From the NCBI GenBank assembly GCA_020348345.1, contig CP070748.1, forward strand, positions 449,210 through 513,209: a stretch of 64,000 bases of DNA, in the 5' to 3' direction. Numbering within the stretch: the stretch's first letter is position 1; the number at the start of each line of letters is the position of its first letter. The position numbers were made by a program, and so were the translations under genes. This stretch comes from Methanobacteriota archaeon (GTDB lineage: Archaea; Thermoplasmatota; Thermoplasmata; UBA10834). Below are positions 29,872-58,415 of this stretch, piece after piece. The notes under the pieces are model-generated. The model saw only the letters and a program-made list of their open reading frames with translations. It ran no database searches and had not been told where the DNA came from.

Positions 29872-29894
29872 CGGTTGTTTGTATGCACAGCCCC

Positions 29895-41367: not shown

Positions 41368-42384
41368 TCACCCCTTCCTCTTGCGTTTCTCGGTCACAGT
41401 TCTCTTGAGCAGCGACTTCGGCAGTGTGAAGGCATAGAATGTCCCGAGTGGGTCCTTCACCTGCATCATTAGTTCCATTATCTGCTCCTCACTTAACTTT
41501 GACTCCGAATCCGTGATGTTCAGCAGCGACGACAGCGCGCTCAGCATACTCCCGCCGTGGTCCATGACCGCCTTCGTCGGGCCCATGCAACCCCTGCAGG
41601 GCATGTTGGCTTTCGGGCACATCGAGCCGCATCCAGCTCTCGTCGCTGGGCCAATGCAGATGATCCCCTGATCGAGAAGGCACTTCTTCGGGTCCGCCTT
41701 GATCTCGTATGACTGGTAGATCTTCTCGATCCGTCTTCCCGTCTCGACGCGCTCGCGGTCGCACTCGTCGCACAGGGTCTTGTCCGAAGCGATAACAGCG
41801 CCTTTGGGTGGCAGATCCGCCCCCTCTGTGACGTGCTTCGCCACTGCATCCACTGCCAGAGCGATGAGGTTCACCGTCGGCGGGCATCCCGGCATGAAGT
41901 AGTCCACATCCACAACCTCGTCAAGGGTTTTGACGCTGTCATAGAATTCCGGGAGGTCCAATTCGCCCTCGGGCACCTTCAGCTGTGTCTGAGGCGTTAC
42001 GAAATCGGGGTTGTCCGTCGAGGCGGTGTCCTTGTAGACCGTCTGGAAGACCTCCTTCTTGTTCGTTACATTTGCCAAGCCTGGCGTCCCACCGAAGCAG
42101 GCGCACGATCCAAACGCAATCATCACCGCCGACTTCTCCCGAAGCACCTTCGCCACATGCTCGTTTTCGCTGTTACGTATCGCACCGTTGTAGAACGATA
42201 CGGTGATCGATTTGTCTGGCATAGCCTCTATCTCGGAGAGTTTCCCGTCGAATCCGATCGGCCAGAATACCACCTCGGCTATGGCATGCACATCCAGTAT
42301 CTTCGCATCTATATCCAGCAGGGCAACGTCGCATCCTCCGCAACCAGCCCCCCAGTACTGCGCTATCTTGATCTTGTCTGCCAT
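41368..42384 (-). CDS. mvhG: [NiFe] hydrogenase small subunit, Mvh type
   Basis: N-terminal AQYWGAGCGGC; Fe-S cysteine clusters throughout. Confidence 0.9.
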   Translation of the reverse strand: MADKIKIAQYWGAGCGGCDVALLDIDAKILDVHAIAEVVFWPIGFDGKLSEIEAMPDKSITVSFYNGAIRNSENEHVAKVLREKSAVMIAFGSCACFGGTPGLANVTNKKEVFQTVYKDTASTDNPDFVTPQTQLKVPEGELDLPEFYDSVKTLDEVVDVDYFMPGCPPTVNLIALAVDAVAKHVTEGADLPPKGAVIASDKTLCDECDRERVETGRRIEKIYQSYEIKADPKKCLLDQGIICIGPATRAGCGSMCPKANMPCRGCMGPTKAVMDHGGSMLSALSSLLNITDSESKLSEEQIMELMMQVKDPLGTFYAFTLPKSLLKRTVTEKRKRKG

Positions 42385-42385
42385 C

Positions 42386-42769
42386 TCAGCTCACCTCCTC
42401 GTTCGAAGGTTGGCTTCTCGGAACAGCCTTGTACTGCGGCGACTGTCCGGTCGTGCCGACCTGCTCGATCATCCTCCACCTCTTCAGGGCAATGATGTGC
42501 TGGACGATCTCCGGCTTCGATATGCCCGTCGCGTCGTGCAGCTCGTGCACGGTTCTGGGCTGCTGTTCCATCTGGAGGAGCAGCATGTTTCGCTCCAACT
42601 CCACGGCGGCCGCCTTCTGGAGTATGAAGCTGTATCTCGCATCCGTGATCGTCTCGCCGAACACGTTCTCGCCGGTCGTCAGCGTCTCCTTCTTGCCGAG
42701 GAGCCACCGTATGCGCTCGCCCTCGAGGGTTTTGAGCGCAGCCCGTATCTTGACGTTCCGCGAAGTCAT
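42386..42769 (-). CDS. Winged-helix-like protein homologous to the C-terminal extension of the fused MvhD at 46268..47092; offset by 2 nt from the upstream mvhD
   Basis: FRLKALVGKEFNLLSKGNAYGEEV... (fused copy) aligns with RIRWLLGKKETLTTGENVFGET... (this ORF); wHTH-like segment TVHELHDATGISKPEIVQHIIALKRWRMI. Confidence 0.55.
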   Translation of the reverse strand: MTSRNVKIRAALKTLEGERIRWLLGKKETLTTGENVFGETITDARYSFILQKAAAVELERNMLLLQMEQQPRTVHELHDATGISKPEIVQHIIALKRWRMIEQVGTTGQSPQYKAVPRSQPSNEEVS

Positions 42770-42771: not shown

Positions 42772-43233
42772 TCAGTCACCACCTCTGACAGGGGACGGGC
42801 CCAGCTCGTTGACAACGTCCGTGAACTCCACTATCGTCTTCTGGAACCTCTCCCCCTCGCCGGCGGATATCCACTCGAGCTTCAATCGTCCAGGATCGAA
42901 GCCGAACTGCTGAAGCAGTATCCTCAGGAGAGCGATCCTCCTGCGAGTCCTGTAGTTACCTCCGATGTAGTGACAGTCCGCCGGATGGCACCCAGCGACC
43001 AGCACTCCGTCCGCGCCCTTCTGGAACGCTCTCAGAACGAACTCCGGGTCCACTCTCGCGGAGCACATGACCCTGATCACCCTGAAGTGAGGGGGCATCT
43101 GTAATCTGCTTACGCCTGCCAGGTCCGCGCCCGCGTATGAACACCAGTTGCAGCAGAATACGAGGATCCTTGGTTCGAAATCCTCCTGTTCCAACTTGTG
43201 CTCGCCTCCTGCATTTGGGGTCGCACTGCTCAT
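42772..43233 (-). CDS. mvhD: MvhD-like [2Fe-2S] electron-transfer subunit
   Basis: [15 protein letters not shown]...CSARV...[17 protein letters not shown] signature. Confidence 0.85.
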   Translation of the reverse strand: MSSATPNAGGEHKLEQEDFEPRILVFCCNWCSYAGADLAGVSRLQMPPHFRVIRVMCSARVDPEFVLRAFQKGADGVLVAGCHPADCHYIGGNYRTRRRIALLRILLQQFGFDPGRLKLEWISAGEGERFQKTIVEFTDVVNELGPSPVRGGD

Positions 43234-46200
43234 TGCTTCACCTCCTGCTTTCCGAGGAGCCCCTCAAGCGCCGCATCGATCATAGCCACGATCTGCTCGT
43301 CTTTGAATCCCTTCTGTGTCAACGCACCTGACGGGCACGCGCCCACGCACGCGCCACAGCCCTTGCACAGGCCCACGTTGACATCTACGAGCTTCTTAGT
43401 CTCGTCCTTCTTGTCGACGATGATCTCGAGCGCCTTGTATTCGCATGTCGGGACGCAGATGCCGCAGCCGTCGCAGAGAGTCTCATCCAAACTCGCCACT
43501 ATGCCTTCGGCTTCAAGAGTCTTCTTGGACAGTACCGTCATCGCGCGCGCAACGGCGGCGAGACCCTGCCCGATGCTCTCATCGAGGAATTTGGGTCCGT
43601 GCGACAGGCCTGCCAGATAAACCCCCTCCGTCGCGAAGTCGACTGGCCTCAGCTTCATGTGCGCCTCGAGGAAGAAGCCCTCCTTGGTCATCGGGACCTT
43701 GAGCATCGGCGCGAGCGCCTCCGACTCCGGATAGGGCCGTGTGCCCGATGCGAGCACGAGGTAATCGGAGGTCAGGACGACCTCCTTGTCCGTGTCCTCA
43801 TCGGTGACCGTAACCTGCAGCTTGCCTCCCTTGTCCTCGACCTTCGGCTTGACGTCGTCCTCGAACCTGATGAACGTCACGCCCTTCTCGGCCGCGTCCT
43901 TATAGTAGGCCTCTCTGAAACCGTAGGTCCGGATGTCCCTGTAGAGAACGTACACCTTCGCCTCGGGGTTCTTCTCCTTTACCTTGATCGCCGCGGTCAT
44001 CGTTCCTGTGCAGCAGACACGCGAACAGTTCGGATGTCCCTCTTCTCTGGAGCCAACACACTGGATGAACACGTACGAATCGCCCTTGGCCTCGTCCTTC
44101 TTGAGCTTCTCCTTGAACTCGAGAAGTGTGAGCACGTTGGGGTTCTCGCCATAGAGATACTCTCCCTCCGGCTTGTACTCCTGACCGCCCACTGCCAGTA
44201 TAACGACGCCGTGCTCGATCTCCTCTCCGCTGTCGAGCGCGGTCTTGAAGTTCCCCACGTATCCGTCTATATTCTTCACTCCGGTGCCGGTGTGCACGGT
44301 GATGTTGTCGTTCGACATGACCTCCTTGGCCAGCGCATCCGCATGCTCTGTCGGGTCCTCGCCGGACGGCAGATAGTGTAGCTTGCGCAAGTTGCCTCCG
44401 AGCTCCTTCTCCTTCTCGACCAGATGCACCTTCACTCCCTGCTTCGCCATCTCGAGCGCGGCGATCATCCCGGTAGCGCCTCCACCTATTACCAGAGCCT
44501 GTTGGTTCACATCGATGGTCAGGTTCTCCAGTGGCTCCAGCAGCCGGGCCTTCGCCACAGCCATTCGAACCAGGTCCTTCGCCTTCTTCGTGGCAGCCGG
44601 CGCCTCGTGCATGTGGATCCATGAGCACTGGTCCCGTATGTTCGCCATCTCGAACAGATACGAGTTCAGGCCCGCCTCCTTGATGGTGTTCTGGAAGAGC
44701 GGCTCATGCGTCCGGGGCGTGCAGCTCGCCACGACGACCCGGTTGAGCTCGTGCTCCTTGATCATCTCCTTTATCTTCTCCTGGGTATCCTGCGAGCAGG
44801 TGTACAGATTCTCCTCGGCGTATGCGACGTTCGGGAGCGTCCTGGCGTACTCGGCGACTGATGGAACGTTCACCACGCCTCCGATGTTTATGCCGCAGTG
44901 ACATACAAAGACGCCTATGCGAGGCTCCTGGCCCGTTATGTCCAGCTCCTCAGGGTATTCCTTCATGGTGACCAGGCTGTCCCTTGCGGAGGCTATCTCG
45001 GTGGCGGCCTTTGCCGCAGCGCCACTCGCCTCGGCGACGGTCATCGGGATGTCCTTGGGAGATGAGAACGCTCCGCTGACGAAGACGCCCTGCTTGGAAG
45101 AGCTGACCGGGTCGAATACCGTGGTCCGGCAGAAACCGTCCGTGTTCAGATCGAAGCCCATGACCTTGCTCAGAGCCTCCGCGTCCTGCGGCGGCTTCAG
45201 TCCAACGGCGAGAACCACCAGGCCGAATTCCTCCTCCTTCGGTTCGCCCTTCTCGACATACTTGACGACCAGGTTCTTCGTCTCTGGATCCTCGAAGACG
45301 GATGCGACCCTCGAACGCACAAACTCTATGCCGTACTCGTTCTGCGCCCTGTTGTAGTACTCGTCAAACTCCTTGCCAAACGCCCTCATGTCCATGAAGA
45401 ACACCTTGGGCTTGATGTCTCCTCCATGCTCCTTGGCGATTATCGCTTCCTTGATCGAGTACATGCAGCAGACGCCCGAGCAGTACTCGTTTCCGACCTG
45501 CTCGTCCCTCGAGCCCACGCACTGTATGAACGCGATCTTCTCGGGTATGTCTCCATCCGAAGGGCGCAATACGGTGCCGAAGTAGGGCCCCGTGGCGCTG
45601 AGCATCCTCTCGAACTCGATGCTGGTCACGACGTTCTTGTAGACGCCGTATCCGTATTCTCCCTTCATGCGAGCGTCGAACTCGTCGAAGCCTGGAGACA
45701 GTATGATGGAACCCACCTTGATCTCCGAGGTGCTCTCCTCCTGATCGTATACGACCGCCTTGGCCTTGCACTCCTCCGCGCAGATGCCGCAGCCGATGCA
45801 CTTGTCCTTGTCGATGGAGTACACCAGAGGAACCGCCTGCGGGTAGCGGACGTATATCGCCTTGCGAACCTTCGTGTTCTCGTTGTACTCGTCAGAGGTC
45901 TCGATCGGGCAAGTCTGTGCGCACGAACCGCAGCCCGTGCACTTCGCTGGGTCTACCCTCAACGCCCTCTGCTTGACAGTGACGGTGAAATCGCCCGCCT
46001 GGCCGTCCACTGACATGATGTCCGCGTTCGTGACCAGGCTTATGTTGTGGTGTCTTCCCGTCGACACGAGCTTCGGCGCCATGATGCACATCGCACAGTC
46101 GTTCGTCGGGAAGGTCTTGTCCAACTGGGCCATCGTGCCTCCTATGCTGGGCTGCTTCTCGACGAGATATACCTTGAATCCGGAGTCGGCTAGGTCAAGG

Positions 46201-46271
46201 GCGGATTGCAGGCCTGATATCCCTCCTCCGACCACCATGACTGCGCCAACCTTGTCAGTAGCTGCCATCAC
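43230..46271 (-). CDS. hdrA: Extended heterodisulfide-reductase subunit A homolog (about 1013 aa) with an extra N-terminal FAD/NAD(P)-binding module
   Basis: The N-terminal part (VMVVGGGISGLQSALDLA...TFPTNDCAMCI) precedes a complete canonical HdrA. That core contains [30 protein letters not shown] and C-terminal ferredoxin CDGCGIC/CKGCGAC. Confidence 0.85.
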   Translation of the reverse strand: MMAATDKVGAVMVVGGGISGLQSALDLADSGFKVYLVEKQPSIGGTMAQLDKTFPTNDCAMCIMAPKLVSTGRHHNISLVTNADIMSVDGQAGDFTVTVKQRALRVDPAKCTGCGSCAQTCPIETSDEYNENTKVRKAIYVRYPQAVPLVYSIDKDKCIGCGICAEECKAKAVVYDQEESTSEIKVGSIILSPGFDEFDARMKGEYGYGVYKNVVTSIEFERMLSATGPYFGTVLRPSDGDIPEKIAFIQCVGSRDEQVGNEYCSGVCCMYSIKEAIIAKEHGGDIKPKVFFMDMRAFGKEFDEYYNRAQNEYGIEFVRSRVASVFEDPETKNLVVKYVEKGEPKEEEFGLVVLAVGLKPPQDAEALSKVMGFDLNTDGFCRTTVFDPVSSSKQGVFVSGAFSSPKDIPMTVAEASGAAAKAATEIASARDSLVTMKEYPEELDITGQEPRIGVFVCHCGINIGGVVNVPSVAEYARTLPNVAYAEENLYTCSQDTQEKIKEMIKEHELNRVVVASCTPRTHEPLFQNTIKEAGLNSYLFEMANIRDQCSWIHMHEAPAATKKAKDLVRMAVAKARLLEPLENLTIDVNQQALVIGGGATGMIAALEMAKQGVKVHLVEKEKELGGNLRKLHYLPSGEDPTEHADALAKEVMSNDNITVHTGTGVKNIDGYVGNFKTALDSGEEIEHGVVILAVGGQEYKPEGEYLYGENPNVLTLLEFKEKLKKDEAKGDSYVFIQCVGSREEGHPNCSRVCCTGTMTAAIKVKEKNPEAKVYVLYRDIRTYGFREAYYKDAAEKGVTFIRFEDDVKPKVEDKGGKLQVTVTDEDTDKEVVLTSDYLVLASGTRPYPESEALAPMLKVPMTKEGFFLEAHMKLRPVDFATEGVYLAGLSHGPKFLDESIGQGLAAVARAMTVLSKKTLEAEGIVASLDETLCDGCGICVPTCEYKALEIIVDKKDETKKLVDVNVGLCKGCGACVGACPSGALTQKGFKDEQIVAMIDAALEGLLGKQEVKQ

Positions 46272-47092
46272 TGCTCACCCCCAATTGCGATGGTCTTGTA
46301 GACCGGAGTGAATCCCTCCGGGTGCTCCATCGCGATCTTGCTGTTCTGCCTAAGCAGAACGATGTGTCTGAGTATCTTGTCGGTAGGGACGTCCATGACC
46401 ATGCCCAACTGCTTGACCGACATCGGCCGTATCCTCGCGAGTTCAAGTATGAGCGCCCTCTCGAACTCGTCCTGGGTAGCCACGTCTATTACGCCAGTCA
46501 GCTTCTCAGCGTCCACCTCCTCACCGTACGCGTTCCCTTTTGAGAGAAGATTGAACTCCTTGCCGACCAGAGCCTTCAGCCTGAATGTCTGGGAAGCGTC
46601 GTCGGCGGCGGAGACCTTCGCCTTCATCATGTCGTCCGAACGCACCTTGCTGGGTCCCAGCTTCTGTATCCCCTCCGTGAACTCAGTGACCACCTTGGAG
46701 AACTTCTCGCCTTCGGATGCAGAGACCCATTCGAGCCTCAGCCTGCCTTCGTCAATCCCCGCCTCCTTGAGGAGCCTCTTCATGAGTTCCACGCGCTTCT
46801 CGGTGTGGAAGTTGCCTGTCATGTAGTGGCAGTCGTTGAGGTGGCAGCCTCCGATGAGTATCCCGTCGGCACCCGCCTCAAAGACGTCGAGCACCAGGTG
46901 CGGGCTCACTCTCGTGGAGCACATGACCCTGACGAGACGTATGTTCGTCGGATACTGGAATCTGCTTACTCCACATAGGTCCGCGCCGGCGTACGAGCAC
47001 CAGTTGCATAGGAAGCCGACAATCTTCGGCTCCCACTCCTTGTCCGGCTCGTGCTTCTTGCCGTGATGAGCGGTGTGATGCTTTTGCGCCAT
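46268..47092 (-). CDS. MvhD fused to a C-terminal wHTH-like domain
   Basis: MvhD signature ([15 protein letters not shown]...GGCHLNDCHY) over about 140 aa, then a roughly 130 aa domain (LARIRPMSVKQLGMVMDVPTDKILRHIVLLRQNSKI) homologous to ORF 42386..42769. Confidence 0.8.
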   Translation of the reverse strand: MAQKHHTAHHGKKHEPDKEWEPKIVGFLCNWCSYAGADLCGVSRFQYPTNIRLVRVMCSTRVSPHLVLDVFEAGADGILIGGCHLNDCHYMTGNFHTEKRVELMKRLLKEAGIDEGRLRLEWVSASEGEKFSKVVTEFTEGIQKLGPSKVRSDDMMKAKVSAADDASQTFRLKALVGKEFNLLSKGNAYGEEVDAEKLTGVIDVATQDEFERALILELARIRPMSVKQLGMVMDVPTDKILRHIVLLRQNSKIAMEHPEGFTPVYKTIAIGGEQ

Positions 47093-47095: not shown

Positions 47096-48973
47096 TCACA
47101 CCTCCTCCAAGGCCGCTTTGGCCTCCGCAAGCAGCTGCTGGTCGGTGTAATGCGTCATTGTGATCGCCCCCTCCGGGCATGTGGCGCCGCAGCAACCGCA
47201 GCCCTTGCACGCGGCGACGATAACCTCGCTGATGCCATCGTCGTTCTTTCTCAGAGCGCCGTACGGGCACACCTCGACGCATGTTCCGCAGCCGGTACAT
47301 TTCGTCTCATCGACTCTCGATGTGAGAGCCTCGGCCTGAACGTAACCGTTCGCGAGAGGTATCGCCGCTCTTGAGGCAGCGGCCGAAGCCTGGGATGCCG
47401 CCTCTGCGATGTCCGCCGGTCCTCTGCAGGTTCCGCACACATAGACGCCGTCCGTCGCGAAGTCGACCGGTCTCAGCTTGACATGTGCCTCCTGGAAGAA
47501 GCCGTCCTGGCCCAATGGCACCTTGAGCAGCTGGGACAGAGTGGCGGCGTCTGGCTGTGACACGAGCGGGGTAGAGAGTATGACCATATCAACCGGCATG
47601 GTCCTCTCCATCTTCAGCGTCTCGTGGAAATATCCAACCTCGAGCTTCCCGTCCTTCGTTGATACCTTCGGGAGGTTGTCCGGCAAGTATCTGATGAACT
47701 TGACCCTCTTTTCTCTGGCCTTGTTGAACTCCAGCTCGTGTTCGACGCCATACGCCATCACGTCCCTGTTGAACACCGTGATCTCCACTCCGCTGGATGG
47801 GGCACCGCCTTCGTCGGCAGCCTCGTCGGCCTCTCGCCTGCCTCTGCCGCGTCTCCTTCGCCTCCTCTCAAGTCCCTCATCCTCCGCCTTCATCTCGGCA
47901 GCAGGTTCCTCGACGACCTGGCCGGCTTCCGCCTCTGCCTTCTCCTCGGTCGCGCCGAGCATGTTGTCTCGGTTCTCAGCTATGTTGATCGCCGTCTTGA
48001 TTGCGACATTGCAGCAGATCCTGGAGCAGTACGAGACCTTCTGTCCTCTTGCTCCAGCGCATTGTATGAAAGCGACGCTCTTCAGCTTGGGAATCTCCTT
48101 CTTGTTGCAGAGTTCCTCGAATTCCATGGACGTGACGACGTTCGGATGTTCCTTGTAACCGAACAGGCCCTCCGGTACCAGCGGGATCGCGCCCGTGGCA
48201 ACGATGATGGCGCCCACCTTGACCTCCTTGGACTCAGATCCTTCTGTGCCTATGGAGACATCGTAATTCCCTATGAATCCCTCCACGGTCGCAACGTGCG
48301 AGTTGACGTACTGTGTGATGTTCTTCTGGGCGTTCACCTTGTCGATGAGTGGCTGAATGGCCTCGTTTGCGCTCTTCTTCGTCATCATCAGACCGTGCAG
48401 GTTCTTCACAAATCCTCCGAGTTCCTTCTCCTTCTCGACCAGATGCACGGGGAATCCCATGTTAGCGAGCGAAAGCGCTGCCGTCATTCCGGCAACTCCG
48501 CCTCCGACGACGAGAGCGGCAGGCGTAACATCGATCTTCGTCTCCTCCTGAGGCTCCAGGAATCGAGCCCTCGCCACGCCCATCCTTACCAGGTCCTTGG
48601 CCTTCTGGGTCGCCTTCTCCTTCTCCTTCATGTGAACCCATGAACAGTGCTCACGTATGTTGACGAAAGTGAACATGTACTTGTTTACGCCAGCAGCCTC
48701 GCACGTGCGCTGGAATAGCGGGGCATGAGTCCGCGGTGTGCAGCTCGAGACCACCACTCTGTCCAGGTTGTGCTCTTTGATGCTCTCCTTGATGTTATTG
48801 AGGCCGTCCTCGGCACATGTGTAGAGGTTGTCTGTGGCGTACACGACGTCCGGAAGGGTCGACGCGTACTCGGTCACGGCCTTGACATCGACGAATCCGC
48901 CTATGTTCGAGCCGCAGTGGCAGATGAATACTCCGATCCGTGGCTTCTTCTCAATGTTTGTGTCTTCGGGCAT
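47096..48973 (-). CDS. Divergent HdrA-like flavoprotein with an Arg/Glu-rich low-complexity insertion
   Basis: PRIGVFICHCGSNIGG N-domain and LVVGGGVAGMTAA FAD motif, but GGFVKNLHG replaces [16 protein letters not shown]; insertion AEAEAGQVVEEPAAEMKAEDEGLERRRRRRGRGRREADEAADEGG; C-terminal 2x[4Fe-4S] ferredoxin. Confidence 0.7.
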   Translation of the reverse strand: MPEDTNIEKKPRIGVFICHCGSNIGGFVDVKAVTEYASTLPDVVYATDNLYTCAEDGLNNIKESIKEHNLDRVVVSSCTPRTHAPLFQRTCEAAGVNKYMFTFVNIREHCSWVHMKEKEKATQKAKDLVRMGVARARFLEPQEETKIDVTPAALVVGGGVAGMTAALSLANMGFPVHLVEKEKELGGFVKNLHGLMMTKKSANEAIQPLIDKVNAQKNITQYVNSHVATVEGFIGNYDVSIGTEGSESKEVKVGAIIVATGAIPLVPEGLFGYKEHPNVVTSMEFEELCNKKEIPKLKSVAFIQCAGARGQKVSYCSRICCNVAIKTAINIAENRDNMLGATEEKAEAEAGQVVEEPAAEMKAEDEGLERRRRRRGRGRREADEAADEGGAPSSGVEITVFNRDVMAYGVEHELEFNKAREKRVKFIRYLPDNLPKVSTKDGKLEVGYFHETLKMERTMPVDMVILSTPLVSQPDAATLSQLLKVPLGQDGFFQEAHVKLRPVDFATDGVYVCGTCRGPADIAEAASQASAAASRAAIPLANGYVQAEALTSRVDETKCTGCGTCVEVCPYGALRKNDDGISEVIVAACKGCGCCGATCPEGAITMTHYTDQQLLAEAKAALEEV

Positions 48974-48979
48974 GTCTGT

Positions 48980-51685
48980 TCACCCCCCTCCTGAATTCGC
49001 GAGGATCTCCGCCGCCTTGGCAGCTGCGCTTGATCCCTGGGCAACGGATTCCGGTATGTCTGCAGGTCCCGCGCAGTACCCAGCAAGATAGACTCCAGGC
49101 ACCTCGCTTCTGCCGAAGTCCAGGATGCTATCGGGGGACTCGAAGAATCCGAACTCAGTCAGCTTCAGCCCGAGCTCCTCGGCCAGCTCGACCGTGTCCT
49201 TCCTTGGGACGAGCGTAGTCGCGAGGACGACCGCGTCGAACTCCTCCGACTGCTGTTTTCCTCCGATATCGAACACGACGACAGGATTGTGCGTTTCAGC
49301 GTTCTCCTGGACGGTCGCGTCGGAGTTGATGTAGCTGACTCCATAATCGCTCTTCGCCCTCTCGACGTACTCGTTGAATCCTTTCGCGCAGGCCCGCATG
49401 TCCTTGTAGAATATCGTCGAATTGATGTCCTCATAGTGCTCTCTGGCGAGCATAGCCTCCTTCGTTGCGTGCATGCAACATACCGCGCAGCAATACGGGT
49501 GCCCAACCTGTGGGTTTCTGGATCCGACGCACTGTATGAACGCCAGCTTCTTCGGATGCTCTCCATCGGACCGTCTGACGATGTGTCCTCCAGTCGGTCC
49601 AGCAGCGTTGATCATGCGCTCATATTCCATAGCTGTGTAGACGTTCGGGTACTTCTTGTAGCCGTACTCCGAGGCGGATGTCGGATCCCATACGTCGAAT
49701 CCTGTTGCGACTATGATTGCCGCAGGGTTCAGCGCCACGGTCTGGTCCTTCATGTTGTAGTCGATGGCGTCCGGTCCGCACGCAGGCGCGCACGCCTCAC
49801 ACTGGGAGCACGGTCCGCAGCTGACGCATCGAGCCGCCTCCTTCAGAGCTTCCTCCTTCGTGAAGATCTTCTCGACCTCTTCGAAAGAGGTTCTGCGCTT
49901 GTCGTCAGGAAGGTGCTGCCTCAGAATCCGTTCGCTCTTCGTAATCTCTCCCTTCATTCTCGCTTTGATGTCCTCAAGGGTGATGACATGCTCGTCCTTT
50001 TCCTCTGGCACCGGCTCGATGCTCTCGCCGTTCAGCATCTTCTCGATGTACAGCGCAGCTTTGTTGCCAGCGCCGAACGCCTCCACAGCCGACGCTGGTC
50101 CCGAAACAGCATCTCCGCCGGCAAATACGCCCTCTACGTTAGTGCTGAGGTTACCCGCGTTCACTTCAAGGGTATTCCATTTCGTAACGGCGAGGTTCTT
50201 TGAGCCCAGAGTGTCAAGATCTGGTGCCTGGCTTACCGCAGGTATGACCGTGTCTACTTCAACCTTGAATTCCGACCCCTCGACAGGCACGGGCCGTGGC
50301 CTGCCGGATTTGTCAGGTTCGCCGAGCTTCATTCGAATGCATTCAATGGATGCGATCTTGCCGTCCTTCCCCTCGATCTTCACCGGCGAAGCGAGGAACT
50401 CGAACTTGACGCCTTCATCTTCCGCGCCCTTTATCTCAGCTGAGATGGCCGGCATCTCGTCCCTGGTTCGGCGGTATATCACTGTTACATCTGAGCCCAT
50501 CCGCAAGGCGGTCCTCGCAGCGTCCATAGCCGCGTTGCCACCGCCTATGACTGCTACCTTTTTGCCGATCTTGACCTGCTCCTTGTCGGCAACTTTGTGA
50601 AGGAAATCCACCCCATGGACGACCCCTTCCAGGTCTTCTCCAGGCACGTCCAGTTTGAGACTCCTGTGAGCTCCTATTGCCAGGAAGACGGCGTCGTATT
50701 CCTTCTTCAGATCATCTAGCGACATGTCCTTGCCAATGGTCTTGCCATACTCGATTTCTATGCCATGCGCAAGCAGGAAGTCGACCTCCGCTTTGAGCAC
50801 GTCTTTTGGAAGGCGATAATCGGGAATACCCCACCAGAGCATCCCACCGGGCTTCGAAGTCGCTTCGAAGATCTTGACTTTAAAACCTTTGAGAGCGAGT
50901 CGGAAGGCCGCTGCCAAACCGGCTGGGCCAGCTCCAACGACCGCCACCTTCTCCTTCCGATCCTCCTCGATCGTGGCCGGCACATCTTCGCCCTGCTCGC
51001 GAACGTAGTCTCCCACGAATGCCTTCAATCCAGCAATGGCCACGGGGTCGTCGACGTCATTTCTGTTGCAGCCCTCTTCACACGGGTGATGGCAAATGCG
51101 TCCACACACGGAGGGTAGGGGTATTGTCCTCCGTATAAGATTCACTGCTTCCTTGAACTTCTCGGCTCGTATGAGCGCCACATATCCCTGCGCGCTCAGC
51201 CCGGCCGGACATTTGTCAGAGCATGGCGCCACACCGGCTCTGTCAATCGTCGCCGCCCTTGGAACTGACTGAAGGAACGGCATGTAGATGGCAGGCCTTT
51301 CCCTCATGTCCATGTCGAACTCATTTGGAAGGCTGACAGGGCAGACCTTGAAACAGTCGCCGCAGCCAGTGCACTTCTCCTCGTCGACGAACCTGGCCTT
51401 CCGGAGCACGTCAACCTTGAAATCCCCAGCCTCCCCGGAGATATTCTTGACCTCCGAGTAGGTCATGACGTTGATGTTGGGGTGCGCGTAGCAGTCCGCC
51501 ATCTTCGGCGCCAGGATGCATATCGAGCAATCGTTCGTAGGGAAAGTCTTGTCCAGCTGTGCCATTCTTCCGCCGATGCTGGGCAGCTTCTCGACCAGGT
51601 CGACCGTGATTCCCTTGTCGGCTAGGTCCAAAGCAGCCTGTATTCCGGCAATTCCGCCTCCGATAACCAATACGGATTTCTTCAA
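48980..51685 (-). CDS. HdrA-like protein with an inserted complete GltD/NfnB-type NAD(P)H:FAD oxidoreductase module (HdrL-like)
   Basis: HdrA FAD motif ([18 protein letters not shown]...[11 protein letters not shown]). GltD signatures: VCGRICHHPCEEGC, VAVVGAGPAGLAAA, WGIPDYRLPK, VAVIGGGNAAMDAA, VFAGGD. C-terminal HdrA segments ([23 protein letters not shown]). TTG start with a GGGGG SD. Confidence 0.8.
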   Translation of the reverse strand: MKKSVLVIGGGIAGIQAALDLADKGITVDLVEKLPSIGGRMAQLDKTFPTNDCSICILAPKMADCYAHPNINVMTYSEVKNISGEAGDFKVDVLRKARFVDEEKCTGCGDCFKVCPVSLPNEFDMDMRERPAIYMPFLQSVPRAATIDRAGVAPCSDKCPAGLSAQGYVALIRAEKFKEAVNLIRRTIPLPSVCGRICHHPCEEGCNRNDVDDPVAIAGLKAFVGDYVREQGEDVPATIEEDRKEKVAVVGAGPAGLAAAFRLALKGFKVKIFEATSKPGGMLWWGIPDYRLPKDVLKAEVDFLLAHGIEIEYGKTIGKDMSLDDLKKEYDAVFLAIGAHRSLKLDVPGEDLEGVVHGVDFLHKVADKEQVKIGKKVAVIGGGNAAMDAARTALRMGSDVTVIYRRTRDEMPAISAEIKGAEDEGVKFEFLASPVKIEGKDGKIASIECIRMKLGEPDKSGRPRPVPVEGSEFKVEVDTVIPAVSQAPDLDTLGSKNLAVTKWNTLEVNAGNLSTNVEGVFAGGDAVSGPASAVEAFGAGNKAALYIEKMLNGESIEPVPEEKDEHVITLEDIKARMKGEITKSERILRQHLPDDKRRTSFEEVEKIFTKEEALKEAARCVSCGPCSQCEACAPACGPDAIDYNMKDQTVALNPAAIIVATGFDVWDPTSASEYGYKKYPNVYTAMEYERMINAAGPTGGHIVRRSDGEHPKKLAFIQCVGSRNPQVGHPYCCAVCCMHATKEAMLAREHYEDINSTIFYKDMRACAKGFNEYVERAKSDYGVSYINSDATVQENAETHNPVVVFDIGGKQQSEEFDAVVLATTLVPRKDTVELAEELGLKLTEFGFFESPDSILDFGRSEVPGVYLAGYCAGPADIPESVAQGSSAAAKAAEILANSGGG

Positions 51686-51846: not shown

Positions 51847-53442
51847 TCATTCCAACGCCTCCGCAATCGCCACGCTGAGGTCCTTGATCTTGATGTCCAC
51901 CTGCTCCTTCGGTATCCCTTCGAGCTTGTTGTCTCGAGCGCAAGCCAGATGAATCAGGCACTTGTAACATCCCGTGACAAGGCAGTCCGCTCCCGTCTTC
52001 TTGGCCTCCTTAAGCCTCTCCACCTGCAGCTTGCGCGCGATATCGTCACACGTTGCCCAGGAGCTTACCCCGCAGCAGGTTGCCTTGTCCTTCGTGTTCT
52101 CCATCTCCACTACGTCGGCTCCGAAGCCCTTCATGGCGTTCCTGGGCGAGTCGTAGATCCCCAGGTGTCTGCCCAGTCGGCAAGAGTCCTGGAAGGTCAG
52201 CTTGTCGGCACCTTTCTTGAACTTCAGTTTTCCATCCTGGATCAGGTCGTCCACGAACTCGGATACGTGGGTCATCTCGAATTCGAAGTCACCCATAAAG
52301 TCCTGATAGTCCATGTCGAAGGTTCTCATGCATTCAGGGCAGGAGAACACGACGGTCTTCGCTCCGGAGGCCTTGATGAGCTCTACATTCCTCTTCATCA
52401 GCTTCTGCAGCCCCTCCTCGTCGCCAGTCCAGTTGAGATCATGCCCGCAGCACACCTCATCGTTGCTGACAACAGGGGTTATGCCTGCACTGTTCATTAT
52501 CTTGACCACAGACTGAGGTATGCCAGCGAGGTTGAGCTCTCTGTCGCGGAAGATAGCATCGAAATACGACACGCATCCAGTGAAGTAGAAGACATCACCC
52601 TTGTCCGCCACCTTCAACTCTGGTGTGAGCCATCCCAGTCTGTCTTGCTTGAAATCTCCGTGTGCCTGGAATCGCATCATTCCCTGCAGGAGTCCACCCT
52701 GACTGCATGCGGGCGTTGCCTCGTTGGCCGCCGCCTCGGTCCTCAATCCTCTGATGAAGCCAGAGTAGTCCACTTTGTACGGGCACATCGAGTTGCACTG
52801 TTCACATGTTATGCAGGTCCAGATATCGTTGCTGGCAACGATGGAATCGGCCTGTCCTTCCGTCGCCTTCAGCACAATCGTTCTGGGGGCGAACTCGGGG
52901 TTGTACTTGGCAACGGGACATACGGTCGTGCACTTGCCGCACTCGACGCAGTCGAAAGCCCCAGTGTCCTCGACGAGGCGATCGACGCTGGGCTTGAGTT
53001 TGGCGGGATCGTAGGTCTTCTTCGGAAGCTTTGGTATCGGGTTGGGGCCTAGCTCTCGTATGCTATCCGTGAATTCCTTCATCGTCGAGGCGAACTTCTG
53101 ACCCTCCGAGGCGGAGATCCATTCCAATCTCATACGGGCCCTGCCTATGCCGACCACGTCCAGCAGGTCCTGTGTGGCCTTCATTCTCTTTTCCGCTTCG
53201 ACGTTTCCGGATATGTAATGACAGTCACCTATGTGGCATCCAGCCACGAGTACGCCATCCGCACCCAGCTCGAGCGCCCTCAGAACAAAGTACGGCTCCA
53301 CCCTTCCAGAGCACATCACCCGGATGATGCGCGCGTTTGGAGGATACTGCATTCTGCTGACCCCTGCCAAGTCCGCGCCGGCGTACGAGCACCAGTTGCA
53401 GCAGAAGGCTACGATGTTCGGCTCGAATTTCTCGCCAGTCAT
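51847..53442 (-). CDS. MvhD-HdrC-HdrB tripartite fusion protein
   Basis: N-terminal MvhD ([15 protein letters not shown]...[10 protein letters not shown]), middle 2x[4Fe-4S] HdrC-like ([12 protein letters not shown] ... [12 protein letters not shown]), C-terminal HdrB CCG-domain pattern (CCGHDLN ... CCGVSSW). The start overlaps the hdrA stop (ATGA); the ORF track extends further 5' inside hdrA. Confidence 0.8.
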
Positions 53443-56400
53443 GTTTTCACCTCCTGCTCGGGCTCCTCGTCTGCAAGTGCCGCCTCTATCATCGTGATGA
53501 TCTGGTCGGATCTGAAGTGCTTCGGTCGAATGGCTCTCGTACAACACTCGACCGCGCATGAGCCGCAGCCTTTGCAGAGAGCCTCCTTGATTCGCGATTT
53601 GAACACTCCGGGCGAGATCTCCTCCACGACCGGGGCTCCGTATTCACAGATGTCCTCGCACCTTCCGCAACCGATGCATTTGTCCTCATCCACGACGCTG
53701 ACGACGCCTTCGGCCTCGATGAACGGCCTTGACAGCACTGTGTTCACTCTGGCTGCTGCCGCGAGCGCCTGCGATATGCTCTCATCGATCAGTCTCGGTG
53801 AGTGGGCGAGACCGCAGAGGAAGATTCCATCGGTGGCAAAATCAACAGGCCTCAGTTTCATATGAGCTTCGAGGAAGAAGCCCTCCCTGTTCTGGGGTAT
53901 CTTCAGAAGCTGCGCCAGATCCTTATTGTCTGGGTTAGGATGGACCGCCGCGTTCAGAACCAGATAGTCAGGTTTGAGTGCAATTCTCTCCTCGATGAAC
54001 TTCTCGTCAATATCTATCTCGAGATCGTCTCCGTTTGCTTTCACTTTCGGAGGCGACTCTGGGTCGAACCTGAGGAACCTGACTCCGAGGCGCGCAGCTT
54101 CGTTGTAGTTCTCCTCAGCGAACCCATAGGTACGTATGTCTCTGAACAGCACGAACACCTCAGTTTCGGGGTGCTCTCTCTTGATCTTCAGAGCGTTAGC
54201 CATCGCGGTTGAGCAACAGATGCGGGAGCAGTTTGGGTGCTCGTCGTTCCTTGATCCCACGCATTGGATGATCACGACGCTTCTGGCGTCAAACTCGCCG
54301 CTGGCAAGCATCTTCCCCAGATCGGTTTGTCTGATGACCTTCGGGTGTTTGCCATACAGGTACTCCTCGGGCTCGTATTCTATAGCTCCAGTCGCCACTA
54401 CGATCGCGCCGTGTTCTATCTTCTCCCCGCTCTTAAGAGTGGTTTCGAAGTTGCCTATGTATCCCTTGACCTCTTCGACGGTATCTTCCAGATGCACTTT
54501 GATCTTCTCGTGTTCCCGAACTTCCTTCTTCAGGCTGGCAAGCGTTTCCCGGGGGTCAACGCCAGAAAGGGTGCTGAATATCGTCCTCAGATGTCCACCC
54601 AGCTCCTTGTCCTTCTCGACCAGGTGAACCTCGTATCCTGCTTTGGCAATCTCTAGTGCGGAGGTCATCCCGCTGAGCCCTCCTCCAATGACCAACGCGG
54701 CGGGTGTGACCGGTATCTTGGGTTGTGGCAACGGTTCAAGTTTGCTCGATTTGGCCACCGCCATCCTCACCAGGTCCTTCGCCTTCTTAGTTGCCGCCTC
54801 GGGTTCCATCCGGTGAACCCAAGAGCACTGGTCTCGTATGTTCGCCATCTCGAACAGGTACTTGTTCAGACCAGCCTCCCTCACCGTGTTCTGAAACAAC
54901 GGCTCGTGCGTCCGCGGTGTGCAGCTCGCGACGACCACTCTGTTGAGATCATGCTCTTCGATTATCTCCTTGATCTTCTTCTGGGTGTCCTGGGAGCAAG
55001 TGTAGAGATTGGCCTCTGCGTAGACCACGCCGGGAAGGCTTGATGCGTACTTCATTACCTCAGGCACGTTGACGACCGCGCCGATATTGATGCCGCAATG
55101 ACAGACGAACACGCCTATGCGAGGCTCCTGACCTTCCAGATTCTTCTCCTCGGGGTATTCCTTCTTGGTGACCAGCTTTCCTCTCTGATCGGCCAGCAAC
55201 GCCGCAACCTTGCCCGCTGCGCCGCTTGCCTGGGCCACTGAGTCGGGGATGTCCTTCGGGCCCGAGAACGCTCCGCAGACGTAGATGCCAGGCGAAGTGC
55301 AGTCGACCGGTGACAGCTCATCAGTCTCACAGAAGCCGTAGCTGTTCATCTTGATACCCAGCATCTTGGCAAGCTGACGTGCCATCTCAGGAGGCTTCGC
55401 GCCGGCAGACAGAACAACCATGTCGAAGGATTCCTCGCTTATGTCAGCATCGTCTATGAAGCTGAGCAAGAGATCGTCGGTTTCATGACTCTGCTGAACC
55501 TTCGATATTCGGTTGTTCCTAAGAATTCTGACACCGTACTCAGTCTCCGCCCGATGAAGGTACTCTTCGAATTCCTTCCCGAACGCGCGCGTATCCATGA
55601 AGAACATGGTCGTTTTGAGTCCAGGCACGTGTTCCTGGGCTATCACAGCCTGTTTGAGGGCTGCCATGCAGCAATACGAAGAGCAGTAAGTGTTCGGTGT
55701 CTGCGCGTCTCGTGAGCCGACGCATTGAATGAACGCTATCTTCTGTGGAACGTCGCCATCCGATGGGCGGATCACATGCCCCTCCGTAGGTCCAGAGGCG
55801 CTCAACATTCGCTCGAACTCTATGTTGCTTACCACATTAGGGTAGACGCCATGGCCGTATGCGTTCTTCTTTGACGCATCGAAGACCTCATAGCCAGTGG
55901 CGAGGATGATCGCTCCGACCTCTATGGTCTCGTCGACCGTCGAGTCCATGCTGTATTCGATTGCGCCGGCCTCGCAGAACTTCTCGCATATGCCACAGCC
56001 GATACAGAGGCCCTTGTCAATCGTGTATATCAAGGGCACTGCCTGAGGAAAGGGGACATAGACCGCCTTTGCAGGTGCGAGATCTCTGTCGAATGAGTTG
56101 GCGCCTTCGATAGGACAGTGTTCCGCGCACACACCGCAGCCAGTGCACTTCTCCTCGACTATGAAGCGCTGGTGCCTTGTGATTGTGACATTGAACTTGC
56201 CCGCCTCTCCTTCTACATTCTTCAGTTCGGCGTTGGTGATGAGGGTGATGTTCTCGTGCCTGCCCGTTGCCACAAGCTTCGGGGACAGAATGCACATGGA
56301 ACAGTCGTTCGTCGGAAAGGTCTTGTCCAGCTGCGCCATCGTTCCGCCGATGCTCGGCGTGGTCTCCAATAGATAGACTTTGTATCCTGATTCCGCGAGG

Positions 56401-56474
56401 TCCAATGCGGCCTGCATGCCCGCTGGTCCTCCTCCCACGACCAGGGCCGCGCCGACGAGTTCGTTATCCGCCAT
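53439..56474 (-). CDS. hdrA: Extended HdrA homolog (about 1011 aa), close paralog of 43230..46271
   Basis: Same architecture as 43230..46271; the central region is roughly 85% identical at the protein level, with near-identical nucleotide stretches. Confidence 0.85.
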
Positions 56475-56476: not shown

Positions 56477-56920
56477 TTATGCACTCTCCTCAGCAATAGG
56501 GCCCAGCGTCTGTAGTTCAGCGACCATCTTCTTCACGACGTCGGCGAACTTCTGACCCTCCGAGCCCGCAATCCATTCCACTCTGAACCTCTGCGGCTCC
56601 AGGCCCGCATCCTCAAGGAACTCCGAAAGAAAGATCCCCCTCATGGCCGTCTTCTCATTGCCGTTGATGTAGTGACAGTCAGAGGGATGACATCCGGCGA
56701 CGATGACGCCGTCTGCCCCCAGCGAGAACGCCTTGAGAACAAATGCCGGATCGACTCTCCCGGAGCACATGACCCTGATGATTCTGACGTTTGCAGGATA
56801 CTGAAGCCTCGTCGTACCTGCTAAATCCGCACCAGCATATGAACACCAATTGCAGCAGAAGGCTACGATTTTCGGCTCAAAGGCGGGGTGCTCCATCTCC
56901 GGGTTCGTCCCCTCTTCCAT
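56477..56920 (-). CDS. mvhD: MvhD-like [2Fe-2S] subunit
   Basis: [15 protein letters not shown]...AGCHPSDCHY. The ORF track's N-terminal extension overlaps hdrB in another frame; the true start is the Met just after the hdrB stop. Confidence 0.85.
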   Translation of the reverse strand: MEEGTNPEMEHPAFEPKIVAFCCNWCSYAGADLAGTTRLQYPANVRIIRVMCSGRVDPAFVLKAFSLGADGVIVAGCHPSDCHYINGNEKTAMRGIFLSEFLEDAGLEPQRFRVEWIAGSEGQKFADVVKKMVAELQTLGPIAEESA

Positions 56921-56922
56921 GG

Positions 56923-57840
56923 CTAGGTCCCCCTGAGCTTCCTGAGGAATGAGTGTGCTGATACGTGATGAGTGTCGAAGCCCAGAGAGATCGGATCGAT
57001 CCCCATTGCCAGGGCCTGGAACTGCGAGACATGCATCACCGGAATCCCTTCCTTTGTGAAGGACTTCTGCGCGTTGTCGAACTGAAGGAGGCAGAACGGG
57101 CAGCCTGTGACGATGCAGTCGGCCCCCGCGTCGGCTATGTTCCTGCACTTGTCCTCGGTGAGCGAATTGGCCAAGTCCACAACGTGGGACCGCACGCCCC
57201 CGCCCGCTCCGCAACAGTCCAATCGATCCTCGTACTCGACGCTCGTTGCGCCACATGTCTCGACGATCTTGTCGATGTTGACGGGGTCGTTGGGGTCGTC
57301 GATGGTTTGGTTCTCGGTAGGTCTTAGGTAATGGCAGCCGTAGTGCACGGCAGCTCTTATGTTCTTGAGAGGACGTTTCGCGTGTTCGGCGATGCTCTCC
57401 AGGCCGACGTCGTTGATCATGAGGTCTACGTAATGCCGCACCTTCACCGGCTCCATTATGCGCCGCCGCCCCTCAGTCTTCCTCGGAATGCCGGTGTACT
57501 TCCTGCCTATCTGAGAGAGAACTCTGTTCACCTTGCCGAGATTCTTCGGATCCGTGAGGTATTCGGTCGCCTTCAGGAGGGACGTAAGGCAGCCGTTGCA
57601 GACGGTGAGGATCTCCCTCCGCTCGTTCTGGGCGAGCGTCAGATTGCGAGCCGCCAGAAGGAGCCATGTGTTCTTGTCGGACGAGTAGAAGATGCCAGGT
57701 ACAGGACAGCAAGAGAACTCCTTGATGTCCTCAACGTCCAGGTTGAACCCGTCGCTTCCGCAGACCCATCTCACGGCATATTCGATGCCTGGATACCTGT
57801 TTGGTATTATGCATCCGAAGAAATACGCGTACTGGCTCAA
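56923..57840 (-). CDS. hdrB: Heterodisulfide reductase subunit B
   Basis: Two CCG domains (FSCCPVPG ... LDCCGAGGG); HdrB-like length. Confidence 0.9.
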   Translation of the reverse strand: MSQYAYFFGCIIPNRYPGIEYAVRWVCGSDGFNLDVEDIKEFSCCPVPGIFYSSDKNTWLLLAARNLTLAQNERREILTVCNGCLTSLLKATEYLTDPKNLGKVNRVLSQIGRKYTGIPRKTEGRRRIMEPVKVRHYVDLMINDVGLESIAEHAKRPLKNIRAAVHYGCHYLRPTENQTIDDPNDPVNIDKIVETCGATSVEYEDRLDCCGAGGGVRSHVVDLANSLTEDKCRNIADAGADCIVTGCPFCLLQFDNAQKSFTKEGIPVMHVSQFQALAMGIDPISLGFDTHHVSAHSFLRKLRGT

Positions 57841-58415
57841 GTCTTCACCTCGCTCTCAATACCGATGAGCTTATCGTAGCCCGTCGAGCGCACGAGCAGA
57901 TTGATCTCCCGCACAACCTTCGCGTATTCCTTGTCGCGCGAGGGCATGTCCACAAGCTCGAGCTCCCTCCTGACTCGCTCGATTTCAGGATCGGGCTTTA
58001 CGCTCTGACCGTACTTGAGCAGGTTCGATGCGGCCATCTTTATGAACGGAGGTATGACTCCCTCCTTGATCGCGATGTGTCTCAGCGCTATCATCACCTC
58101 AGCAGGGTTGATGTCCGCGGGACAGTGTTCGTAACATCTGTAGCACGTGGCGCAGACCCATCGAGTTTCAAGCGTGAACTTCTTCAGCCCGAACTGGCAG
58201 AACTTGATGATACTCCTGGTCTTGTAATCGATCTTGAGGCTTATCGGACACACGCCGGTGCAATTGCCGCACTGAAGGCATGTCATCACATCCTTGCCTC
58301 CATGCTTCACAATCTCCTTGGCGAAATCCGGTTCCAGCTGAGATTCATCAATGACTCTGTCTTCAACCAGCTTCTCGCGCAGACCGCTGATGAAGGTCTT
58401 CTCCACCTCTCCCAT
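57837..58415 (-). CDS. hdrC: Heterodisulfide reductase subunit C
   Basis: 2x[4Fe-4S] (CLQCGNCTGVCP ... CATCYRCYEHCP). Confidence 0.9.
   Translation of the reverse strand: MGEVEKTFISGLREKLVEDRVIDESQLEPDFAKEIVKHGGKDVMTCLQCGNCTGVCPISLKIDYKTRSIIKFCQFGLKKFTLETRWVCATCYRCYEHCPADINPAEVMIALRHIAIKEGVIPPFIKMAASNLLKYGQSVKPDPEIERVRRELELVDMPSRDKEYAKVVREINLLVRSTGYDKLIGIESEVKT

Follow-up and report, generated by a model that had tools for sequence, protein, structure and literature searches.

A split HdrL with a predicted StnC-type NADPH cassette in a Thermoplasmata-type Hdr/Mvh gene cluster

We report here on two consecutive genes in a 64,000-nucleotide stretch of archaeal DNA (contig CP070748.1 of assembly GCA_020348345.1, positions 449,210 to 513,209; the whole stretch is called the window below). 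The genes lie in a cluster of Hdr and Mvh genes and encode proteins of 901 and 625 aa, which we call HdrL-N and HdrL-C. Taken together, the two are a split HdrL, and for annotation they are one enzyme rather than an "FAD-dependent oxidoreductase" plus an "HdrA". In overall terms the best explanation, which we hold with moderate confidence, is that HdrL-N makes up the first half of a two-gene HdrL, in which an inserted GltD-fold cassette would act as NADPH port and the HdrA flavin would carry out the bifurcation.

Domain composition of the two halves

HdrL-N is encoded by a single ORF (open reading frame) of 901 aa, starting with TTG at 51685 and ending with TGA at 48982-48980. A first-pass annotation, made from the DNA letters without database searches, had the coordinates right, and the strand is corrected here to minus; a plus-strand reading of 48980-51685 was rejected, its frame being full of stops. 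All peptide motifs quoted in that annotation are present in HdrL-N. From the N-terminus these regions comprise an FAD GxGxxG motif (residues 5-22), TFPTNDC (47-53), GRICHHPCEEGC (195-206), the FAD Rossmann motif VAVVGAGPAGLAAA (247-260), WGIPDYRLPK (285-294), the NADPH Rossmann motif VAVIGGGNAAMDAA (377-390), VFAGGD (520-525) and CCAVCC (732-737). Searches against Pfam give Pyr_redox_2 at 246-540 (E 4e-52) and Fer4_20 at 153-232 (E 4e-20), together with the N-terminal FAD dinucleotide motif and a 4Fe-4S motif at residues 100-118, and on the whole the database matches of HdrL-N are far beyond chance.

The layout of the protein becomes clear from the sequence search against PDB. The HdrA of Methanothermococcus thermolithotrophicus (5odc_A) matches in two blocks (E 5e-133), with HdrL-N 4-149 corresponding to HdrA 145-290 and HdrL-N 626-896 to HdrA 293-566, while NfnB-type chains match residues 152-631 with E values from 1e-96 to 1e-131. 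About 476 residues are inserted between HdrA 290 and 293, where they part the first CxxCxxCxxxC motif of the inserted ferredoxin domain from the second. The features of canonical HdrA (5ODC, the MvhAGD-HdrABC complex) are kept on both sides of the insertion: the TrxR-like FAD domain with TNDC53SIC56, where C56 aligns with HdrA Cys197, the first ferredoxin motif (C105, C108, C111, C115), the second one (C626, C629, C632, C636), and the four cysteines of the TrxR-domain cluster (C719, C732, C736, C737). An AlphaFold2 model, built as a single chain from a 45-sequence alignment, is confident (pLDDT 89, pTM 0.85), and in a Foldseek search against PDB its part outside the cassette superposes on HdrA. 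Domain mapping with hidden Markov models (HMMs) and structure prediction had been proposed as checks in the first-pass annotation, and both place HdrA blocks on the two flanks of a GltD-fold cassette. HMMs, PDB sequence matches, the AlphaFold model and the fold search thus agree with its proposal of an HdrA scaffold carrying a complete GltD/NfnB-type NAD(P)H module. By the 5odc_A alignment, HdrL-N has no HdrA N-terminal domain, as had been noticed, and it also lacks the C-terminal ferredoxin domain, which had been overlooked.

On HdrL-N the NCBIfam models of canonical HdrA fall far short of their curated cut-offs (NF041778, 337 of 1,400 bits; NF041891, 342 of 1,300; NF040770, 528 of 1,100); the GltD models TIGR01317 and TIGR01318 reach 220 and 318 bits against 448 and 483; and NfnB-like models likewise stay below their cut-offs. 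The sole model above its curated cut-off is PRK12771 (NF009410), with 557 against 516 bits. No GltB partner was found within the 64-kb window.

The 625-aa neighbour supplies the two HdrA domains that HdrL-N is missing. HdrL-C contains an HdrA N-terminal domain (PRIGVFICHCG), a TrxR-like FAD domain and a C-terminal ferredoxin domain with two [4Fe-4S] clusters, matching HdrA 3-234, 316-416 and 419-646. It is without HdrA 235-315, the inserted ferredoxin domain, and has no Cys at the TNDCSIC/Cys197 position; HdrL-N provides both features, with C56 as its counterpart of Cys197. This fits the rule given by Chadwick et al. 2022 for tandem and fused HdrA, in which the copy with an N-terminal domain is without Cys197 and the copy without that domain has Cys197; the residue ligates the N-terminal cluster of the partner, a cluster that lies on the way to the inserted ferredoxin domain (PMC9012536). 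Two tandem HdrA proteins of about 1,010 aa are encoded in the same cluster, with the same two-module layout and without the insert, and residues 440-1003 of the 1,013-aa one align with the whole of HdrL-C. Seen in this way, HdrL is a tandem HdrA with an NADPH cassette acquired in its first module.

Comparison with long homologues leads to the same picture. Over its full length HdrL-C matches residues 911-1468 of a homologue of 1,472 aa, at 42% identity, and it likewise matches the C-terminal portion of a Methanomassiliicoccales protein of 1,565 aa, which makes the long form a fusion of HdrL-N and HdrL-C. Among the best 120 homologues, 30 have about 900 aa and 89 have at least 1,400 aa. The first-pass annotation had described the 901-aa protein as an HdrL-like chimera, which is correct as far as it goes, but the protein is only the first half of HdrL and the 625-aa neighbour is the second. 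In HdrL-N, an FAD/TrxR-like domain of HdrA type shares one polypeptide with a GltD/NfnB-like NAD(P)H module, and an mvhD gene lies directly downstream of the pair, as it does in relatives. The single large polypeptide of about 1,400-1,500 aa by which HdrL is recognised is not found here, the gene pair being colinear with the fused HdrL.

As a separate observation, HdrL-C carries a lineage-specific insert of about 58 aa (window 47795-47968, minus strand; residues about 336-393), which is rich in E, A and R, of low complexity, and ends with RRRRRRGRGRR. In HdrL-C it follows the CSRICC cluster motif and precedes the next strand. The insert is present in relatives of 91% and 70% identity, and absent from a split relative of 55% identity and from the fused bacterial and Methanomassiliicoccales forms.

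HdrL has been described in sulfate reducers. HdrL1-3 of Desulfobacterium autotrophicum, where mvhD follows hdrL, were reported in 2009 (PMC2702500), and HdrL is an HdrA-type flavoprotein with a glutamate-synthase-small-subunit-like NAD(P)H module, for which NAD(P)H was proposed as electron source (PMC2702500, PMC5947623). It was found in the proteome of sulfate-grown Syntrophobacter (Syntrophobacter fumaroxidans Sfum_0824; PMC5947623). In Desulfobacterales and Syntrophales, fused homologues run colinear with the pair of HdrL-N and HdrL-C, whereas the present HdrL is spread over two genes (901 + 625 aa) of an archaeon, with 41-49% identity to the bacterial forms and in one cluster with MvhAG, a full-length HdrACB and two tandem HdrA genes. 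In ANME-1 archaea, HdrA9/10/11 ('HdrA-NfnB') have an NfnB-like insertion of about 500 aa interrupting the inserted ferredoxin domain, and NADPH was proposed as carrier; such an insertion in HdrA was restricted to some ANME-1 among the genomes compared there (Chadwick et al. 2022; PMC9012536). The topology is the same as in HdrL-N, as judged from the published description rather than by direct sequence comparison, whereas the host here is a Thermoplasmata-type metagenome-assembled genome.

A protein search returns about 8,000 related sequences. Scanning representative genomes gives at least 600 matching stretches, the layout being shared by 600 or more genomes, and among the matches listed the identity is 41-49% and nearly all are bacterial. 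We kept 80 of these loci, all of which encode an ORF aligning across the insert boundaries; residue counts below are over 82 loci, in which these boundaries are identical. Closer to the window, the exact HdrL-N protein is deposited as UCE45746.1, on a contig of 1,698,361 bp, with a 90% cluster of 25 members, several of them labelled Thermoplasmata/Thermoplasmatota. An identical 901-aa protein, followed after 6 nt by the same 625-aa gene, is found in an independent Logan assembly, and a 91%-identical copy lies in the same 20-kb gene cluster of GCA_041548485.1. On the whole, HdrL-N is a known and widespread architecture in a new host lineage.

Type and cofactor sites of the inserted cassette

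By its sequence motifs, the cassette has a complete FAD site, an NADPH-type Rossmann fold (YRR) and the ligands of two [4Fe-4S] clusters. The residues concerned are PC155xxxC159P, the predicted cluster ligands C198, C202, C206 and K221, the triplet Y404-R405-R406, GGD at 523-525, and a terminal motif RRxSFEEV...EAARC620xxC623. The AlphaFold2 model, Foldseek and motif alignment all find the two Rossmann folds of the cassette intact, including the NAD(P)H-binding one, which the first-pass annotation had singled out for scrutiny. The YRRTRDEMPA, FAD and GGD motifs align with those of the NADPH-dependent references 4ylf_B, 5jca_L, 8oh5_C, 9bov_A and 9n5u_A, and the stretch VAVIGGGNAAMDAA...IYRRTRDEMPA at 377-413 suggests a specificity for NADPH rather than NADH. 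Among the HdrL-type loci, the first Arg of YRR is Leu or Pro in 15 of 82, the preceding Tyr being variable as well, and these loci may represent NADH-specific variants of the cassette.

As for its type, StnC and NfnA-Bfu (8OH5; 9BOV, 9N5U) come out on top in both sequence and fold comparison, with 369-429 bits and 45% identity. Foldseek superposes the cassette on 9bov_A (NfnA-Bfu of Caldicellulosiruptor) and 8oh5_C (StnC) with a root-mean-square deviation (rmsd) of 2.2 Å over about 480 columns. NfnB/NfnL (4YLF, 5JCA) share with it the GltD fold, FAD, NADPH and two [4Fe-4S] clusters, at 327-357 bits; the rmsd on NfnI-L and NfnB is 2.0-2.2 Å with a TM-score of about 0.8 normalised to the target, and GltD is also matched. 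The first-pass annotation was therefore right about the GltD/NfnB fold, but at the residue relevant to bifurcation (Lys221, see below) the cassette is like StnC/NfnA-Bfu and not like NfnB.

The order of segments separates the two types. In native order NfnB aligns with HdrL-N only from its residue 45 on (327 bits). We then placed HdrL-N 590-625 (RRTSFEEV...EAARCVSCG) before residues 151-556 and realigned the sequences. After this permutation NfnB aligns as a single stretch (residues 13-462, 357 bits), and NfnI-L and GltD improve likewise, while StnC and NfnA-Bfu break into two stretches because in both of them the segment already stands after the domain. Relative to NfnB and GltD the cassette is therefore circularly permuted, whereas it shares its segment order with StnC and NfnA-Bfu, in which RRxxFxEV...EAxRCxxCG also follows the Rossmann domains; NfnB residues 13-44 correspond to HdrL-N 593-625, placed after the domain here. 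By this order, the first cassette cluster would be ligated from both ends of the insert, by C155 and C159 together with C620 and C623, a natural arrangement for an inserted domain.

The second distinction lies in the ligands of the clusters. K221 aligns with K170 of StnC and with the Lys of two NfnA-Bfu structures, where NfnB (4ylf_B) and NfnI-L (5jca_L) have Glu. It is invariant in the 45-sequence alignment; of the 82 loci, 73 have Lys at this position, 8 have His and 1 has Arg, while Glu occurs in none. Cysteines 155, 159, 198, 202, 206, 620 and 623 are invariant or nearly so in the same loci, while C194 is not conserved (49 of 82); judged by this conservation, the two cassette clusters are probably held by seven Cys and Lys221, as in StnC. 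One difference is that Cys114 of StnC corresponds to Ala165 in HdrL-N. According to the study of Stn, bifurcating NfnB ligates the FAD-proximal cluster with a Glu, whereas non-bifurcating StnC uses Lys170; its activity is crippled by mutation of K170 (PMC10482914). In NfnABC from Csac, the homologous FAD forms the terminus of the electron chain, where it oxidises NADPH and hands on single electrons (PMC11829005). Both in StnABC of Sporomusa ovata and in NfnABC, the GltD-like flavin is a non-bifurcating NADPH input.

Segment order and Lys ligand hence assign the cassette, at the level of sequence, to the StnC/NfnA-Bfu type and not to the NfnB type. The host scaffold differs, being HdrA here and a NuoG/Fdh-like BfuA subunit there; a NuoG/Fdh-like domain is absent from HdrL-N in the Pfam search, and the cluster contains no NuoF/NuoE-like or HydBC/BfuBC-type genes. 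From Lys221 and the permuted, StnC-type order it follows that the cassette is most likely a plain NADPH port, and its flavin is probably not a second site of bifurcation. Within the literature searched, three points appear to be new: the split form of the gene, the StnC-type identity of the cassette as seen in its permutation and Lys, and a cassette flavin that is probably non-bifurcating.

Proposed electron flow and competing explanations

In the mechanism that we propose, HdrL-N and HdrL-C would form an asymmetric HdrA pseudo-dimer, which would associate with the downstream MvhD and with the upstream MvhD-HdrC/HdrB-like protein, a candidate for the disulfide-reducing subunit. The cassette flavin would take a hydride from NADPH or give one to NADP+. 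Single electrons would pass from the cassette FAD over the two cassette clusters to the two clusters of the inserted ferredoxin domain, then to the N-terminal-domain cluster, with C56 as a ligand in trans, and from there to the HdrA flavin, which would be the only bifurcating or confurcating centre. NADP(H) would take the branch on which canonical HdrA reduces free ferredoxin; a second branch would lead via the HdrC/B-like protein to a disulfide/thiol couple, and a third via MvhD to a low-potential partner, which may be ferredoxin, or H2/H+ by way of the MvhAG of the same cluster. The net reaction would most likely be NADPH-dependent disulfide reduction coupled to ferredoxin or proton reduction, or the reverse. 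Potentials of -414 mV for H2, -420 mV for ferredoxin, -320 mV for NADH and -140 mV for heterodisulfide are given by Buckel and Thauer (PMC5861303), and NADPH-driven disulfide reduction coupled to ferredoxin or proton reduction would therefore be feasible.

Several points weigh against this proposal. The most serious one is the place of the cassette: it is attached to the branch that has a low potential in canonical HdrA, an odd entry for a mid-potential donor. A gap of 161 nt separates HdrL-N from the upstream HdrC/B-like gene, and there is no HdrB/C gene from HdrL-N through MvhA, so that the disulfide partner is uncertain here. The cluster ligands are assigned by alignment and conservation, the Lys/Glu marker has been checked by mutagenesis in StnC only, and Arg291 (R201 in NfnB, R239 in StnC) is invariant in the homologues, with a geometry beyond what a sequence can tell. 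Our literature search found no purified, assayed or structurally studied HdrL; what the enzyme turns over, which way its electrons run and its bifurcation are all inferred. HdrL-type proteins are among the most widespread Hdr variants of anaerobes lacking enzyme characterisation; here the Lys-for-Glu exchange at the proximal cluster together with the StnC-type order makes a concrete prediction open to mutagenesis, and the split archaeal HdrL may be easier to express and dissect than the fused proteins of about 1,500 aa.

An extension of the proposal, which we regard as fairly unlikely, is that HdrL-N/HdrL-C, the MvhD proteins and MvhAG make up one three-port Hdr complex linked to H2, NADP(H) and disulfide, with NADP(H) fixed to the ferredoxin branch by the permuted, non-bifurcating StnC-type cassette. 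If true, this would be an Hdr complex of a stoichiometry not yet described, and Bfu and Hdr, two unrelated bifurcating families, would each have acquired the same insertable NADPH cassette independently.

Another explanation dispenses with the disulfide: HdrL-N/HdrL-C and MvhD would be the diaphorase of MvhAG, passing electrons from H2 to NADP+, maybe with ferredoxin as co-donor. The gene order agrees with such an NADP+-reducing hydrogenase, as the stretch behind the 161-nt gap runs from HdrL-N over HdrL-C, MvhD, tandem HdrA, MvhD, a winged helix-turn-helix (wHTH) protein and MvhG to MvhA with no HdrB/C, and the cluster is bracketed by Hyp maturation genes; besides, the transfer from H2 (-414 mV) to NAD(P)+ (-320 mV) is exergonic at standard conditions (PMC5861303). 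However, MvhA/G is a rare neighbour of HdrL (4 of 80 genome loci), and HdrB/C-type genes are common within 8 kb of it (47 of 80). In relatives the place just upstream of HdrL-N is taken by an equivalent of the HdrC/B-like gene, in the form of one fusion or of two genes, which abuts or overlaps HdrL-N in split relatives, and an HdrA-type bifurcating core would be superfluous for a simple downhill reaction. We therefore consider a pure hydrogenase role unlikely.

It is quite unlikely, too, that the cassette flavin acts like the b-FAD of NfnB, in which case two bifurcating flavins would be joined via their low-potential iron-sulfur branches. Two bifurcation sites have been raised for the HdrA-NfnB of ANME-1 (PMC9012536), and for the cassette the idea draws on its fold similarity to NfnB, including 41% identity to NfnB of T. 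maritima (Foldseek), and on the invariant Arg291. Against it stand Lys221, with Glu in none of the 82 loci, and the segment order of StnC instead of NfnB, both of which point to one bifurcation site and not two, unlike what was raised for ANME-1. In addition, Pfam scans of most large ORFs in the 64-kb window, a few ORFs being unscanned, show no NfnA/PyrK-like [2Fe-2S]/FAD partner.

The remaining alternatives concern the junction of the two genes and not the function of HdrL with its NADPH port. The stop codon of HdrL-N and the start of HdrL-C read TGA ACA GAC ATG in the same frame, with GGAGGGGGG, a Shine-Dalgarno-like run, just upstream of the ATG. The split is kept in relatives of 100%, 91%, 70% and 55% identity, of which the 91% one repeats the in-frame junction, while those of 70% and 55% have a gene of about 900 aa and then one of about 600 aa, out of frame after a 5-nt gap. 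TGA is also the commonest stop in the window (38 of 55 crude ORFs). Since the split is conserved and TGA is the usual stop, the gene split is genuine, and the in-frame TGA is probably a lineage-specific detail. The linker between HdrL-N and HdrL-C is shorter than in fused forms. Among the representative-genome loci, 71 of 80 are fused and at least four to five are split by eye, for example in Dehalococcoidia; a rough neighbour-joining tree places the split ones in at least two clades, with the clade of the window sister to fused archaeal forms.

The in-frame junction itself (window 48971-48985, minus strand) could be a relic of fission by point mutation, or could allow occasional read-through to a fused protein. 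Programmed read-through, giving a fused HdrL of about 1,529 aa besides the split pair in this sub-lineage, is very improbable to us. The in-frame junction is shared by the window and the 91% relative, and read-through would yield a protein colinear with natural fused HdrL; yet chance alone puts one junction in three in frame, fission by point mutation would leave it in frame in any case, the 70% relative has the two genes in different frames, no SECIS-like (selenocysteine insertion sequence) or other recoding signal was found, and the Shine-Dalgarno-like motif argues for independent initiation of HdrL-C. Selenocysteine or other recoding at this TGA was rejected, TGA being the commonest stop, the site lying in an inter-domain linker and a distant relative being out of frame; the cluster-ligand positions of HdrL-N, Lys221 apart, are all Cys, and no selenocysteine is seen. 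As for an artefact, two in-frame ORFs parted by TGA and two codons do look like a nonsense error or pseudogene lesion, but this, like the assembly chimera of hdrA and gltD/nfnB against which the first-pass annotation had cautioned, is refuted as far as the data allow and left with next to no probability by the recurrence of the 901 + 625 arrangement in an independent assembly and of the ORF in UCE45746.1 and its 90% cluster, by the relatives split at 91%, 70% and 55% identity, the latter two out of frame, by the strong GGAGG plus ATG before the second gene, by the shortened linker and usual stop, and by the identical boundaries in 82 loci.

The Hdr/Mvh cluster and the rest of the window

The genes described above belong to a cluster of Hdr and Mvh genes (Table 1), which agrees with the Mvh/Hdr array seen in the first-pass annotation. 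In total it contains four HdrA-type units (697 aa, 1,011 aa, 1,013 aa and the split HdrL) and four MvhD domains, and its gene order is kept in GCA_041548485.1 and largely in a 70% relative. On the wider scale, MvhD is found within 8 kb of HdrL in 58 of the 80 genome loci.

Table 1. Positions in the window of the Hdr/Mvh cluster, its genes and the parts of HdrL-N
Feature	Position	Strand	Description
Hdr/Mvh cluster	39283-60511	minus	bracketed by hypE and by hypD, hypA, hypF
HycI-type maturation protease	39283-39795	minus	downstream part of cluster
MvhA, [NiFe] large subunit	39847-41361	minus	downstream part of cluster
MvhG	41368-42384	minus	downstream part of cluster
ArsR-type wHTH	42386-42769	minus	127 aa; HTH_5, E 3e-6; between MvhD and MvhG
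MvhD	42772-43233	minus	downstream part of cluster
Tandem HdrA	43230-46271	minus	1013 aa
MvhD-type [2Fe-2S] protein	46268-47092	minus	274 aa; FlpD at residues 24-146, E 1e-52; directly downstream of split HdrL
HdrL-C	47096-48973	minus	625 aa; second half of split HdrL, directly downstream of HdrL-N
HdrL-N	48980-51685	minus	901 aa; HdrA TrxR-like FAD domain and cassette-interrupted inserted ferredoxin domain
HdrL-N residues 626-901	48983-49810	minus	ferredoxin motif 2 and second part of HdrA TrxR-like domain
HdrL-N residues 150-625	49811-51238	minus	inserted GltD-fold cassette
HdrL-N residues 1-149	51239-51685	minus	first part of HdrA TrxR-like domain (5odc_A alignment and invariant Cys)
MvhD-HdrC/HdrB-like fusion	51847-53442	minus	531 aa; FlpD, Fer4_8 and two CCG domains
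Tandem HdrA	53439-56474	minus	1011 aa; upstream part of cluster
MvhD	56477-56920	minus	upstream part of cluster
HdrB	56923-57840	minus	upstream part of cluster
HdrC	57837-58415	minus	upstream part of cluster
Full-length HdrA	58418-60511	minus	697 aa

Two of the starts in Table 1 are refined from longer ORFs. For the MvhD-HdrC/HdrB-like gene (longest ORF 51847-53559), the likely start is the ATG at 53442, with GGAGGTG upstream and an ATGA overlap with the upstream stop; for the upstream MvhD (longest ORF 56477-57256) it is the ATG at 56920, giving 147 aa. Both agree with the gene lengths called in relatives. A scan of the 161-nt gap upstream of HdrL-N for sigma-70 promoters and terminators gave nothing, with a model that is unsuited to archaeal promoters.

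The gene downstream of HdrL-C had been called an MvhD-wHTH protein, which does not hold: the 274-aa MvhD is without a detectable wHTH, and the wHTH is a separate ORF of 127 aa. The MvhD has a C-terminal extension of about 125 aa (46268-46690, minus strand) with no Pfam match (best E 0.19), and an extended MvhD downstream of HdrL is kept in relatives with lengths of 258-291 aa. The ArsR-family wHTH is kept at the same place in relatives as well, and may be a regulator embedded in the operon.

Overall, the window has a G+C content of 55%. Outside the cluster it carries housekeeping genes of archaeal type, including an ELP3-like radical SAM protein, CDC48, PorGDAB, AspRS, a histidine operon and NadE, and no tRNA genes are present in it. 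Two adjacent genes of the clostripain family (Peptidase_C11; 401 and 388 aa) lie at 28497-31061 on the minus strand. In addition, two consecutive large TPR-repeat proteins of 629 and 868 aa are encoded at 7141-11636 on the plus strand, downstream of the ELP3-like radical-SAM gene.

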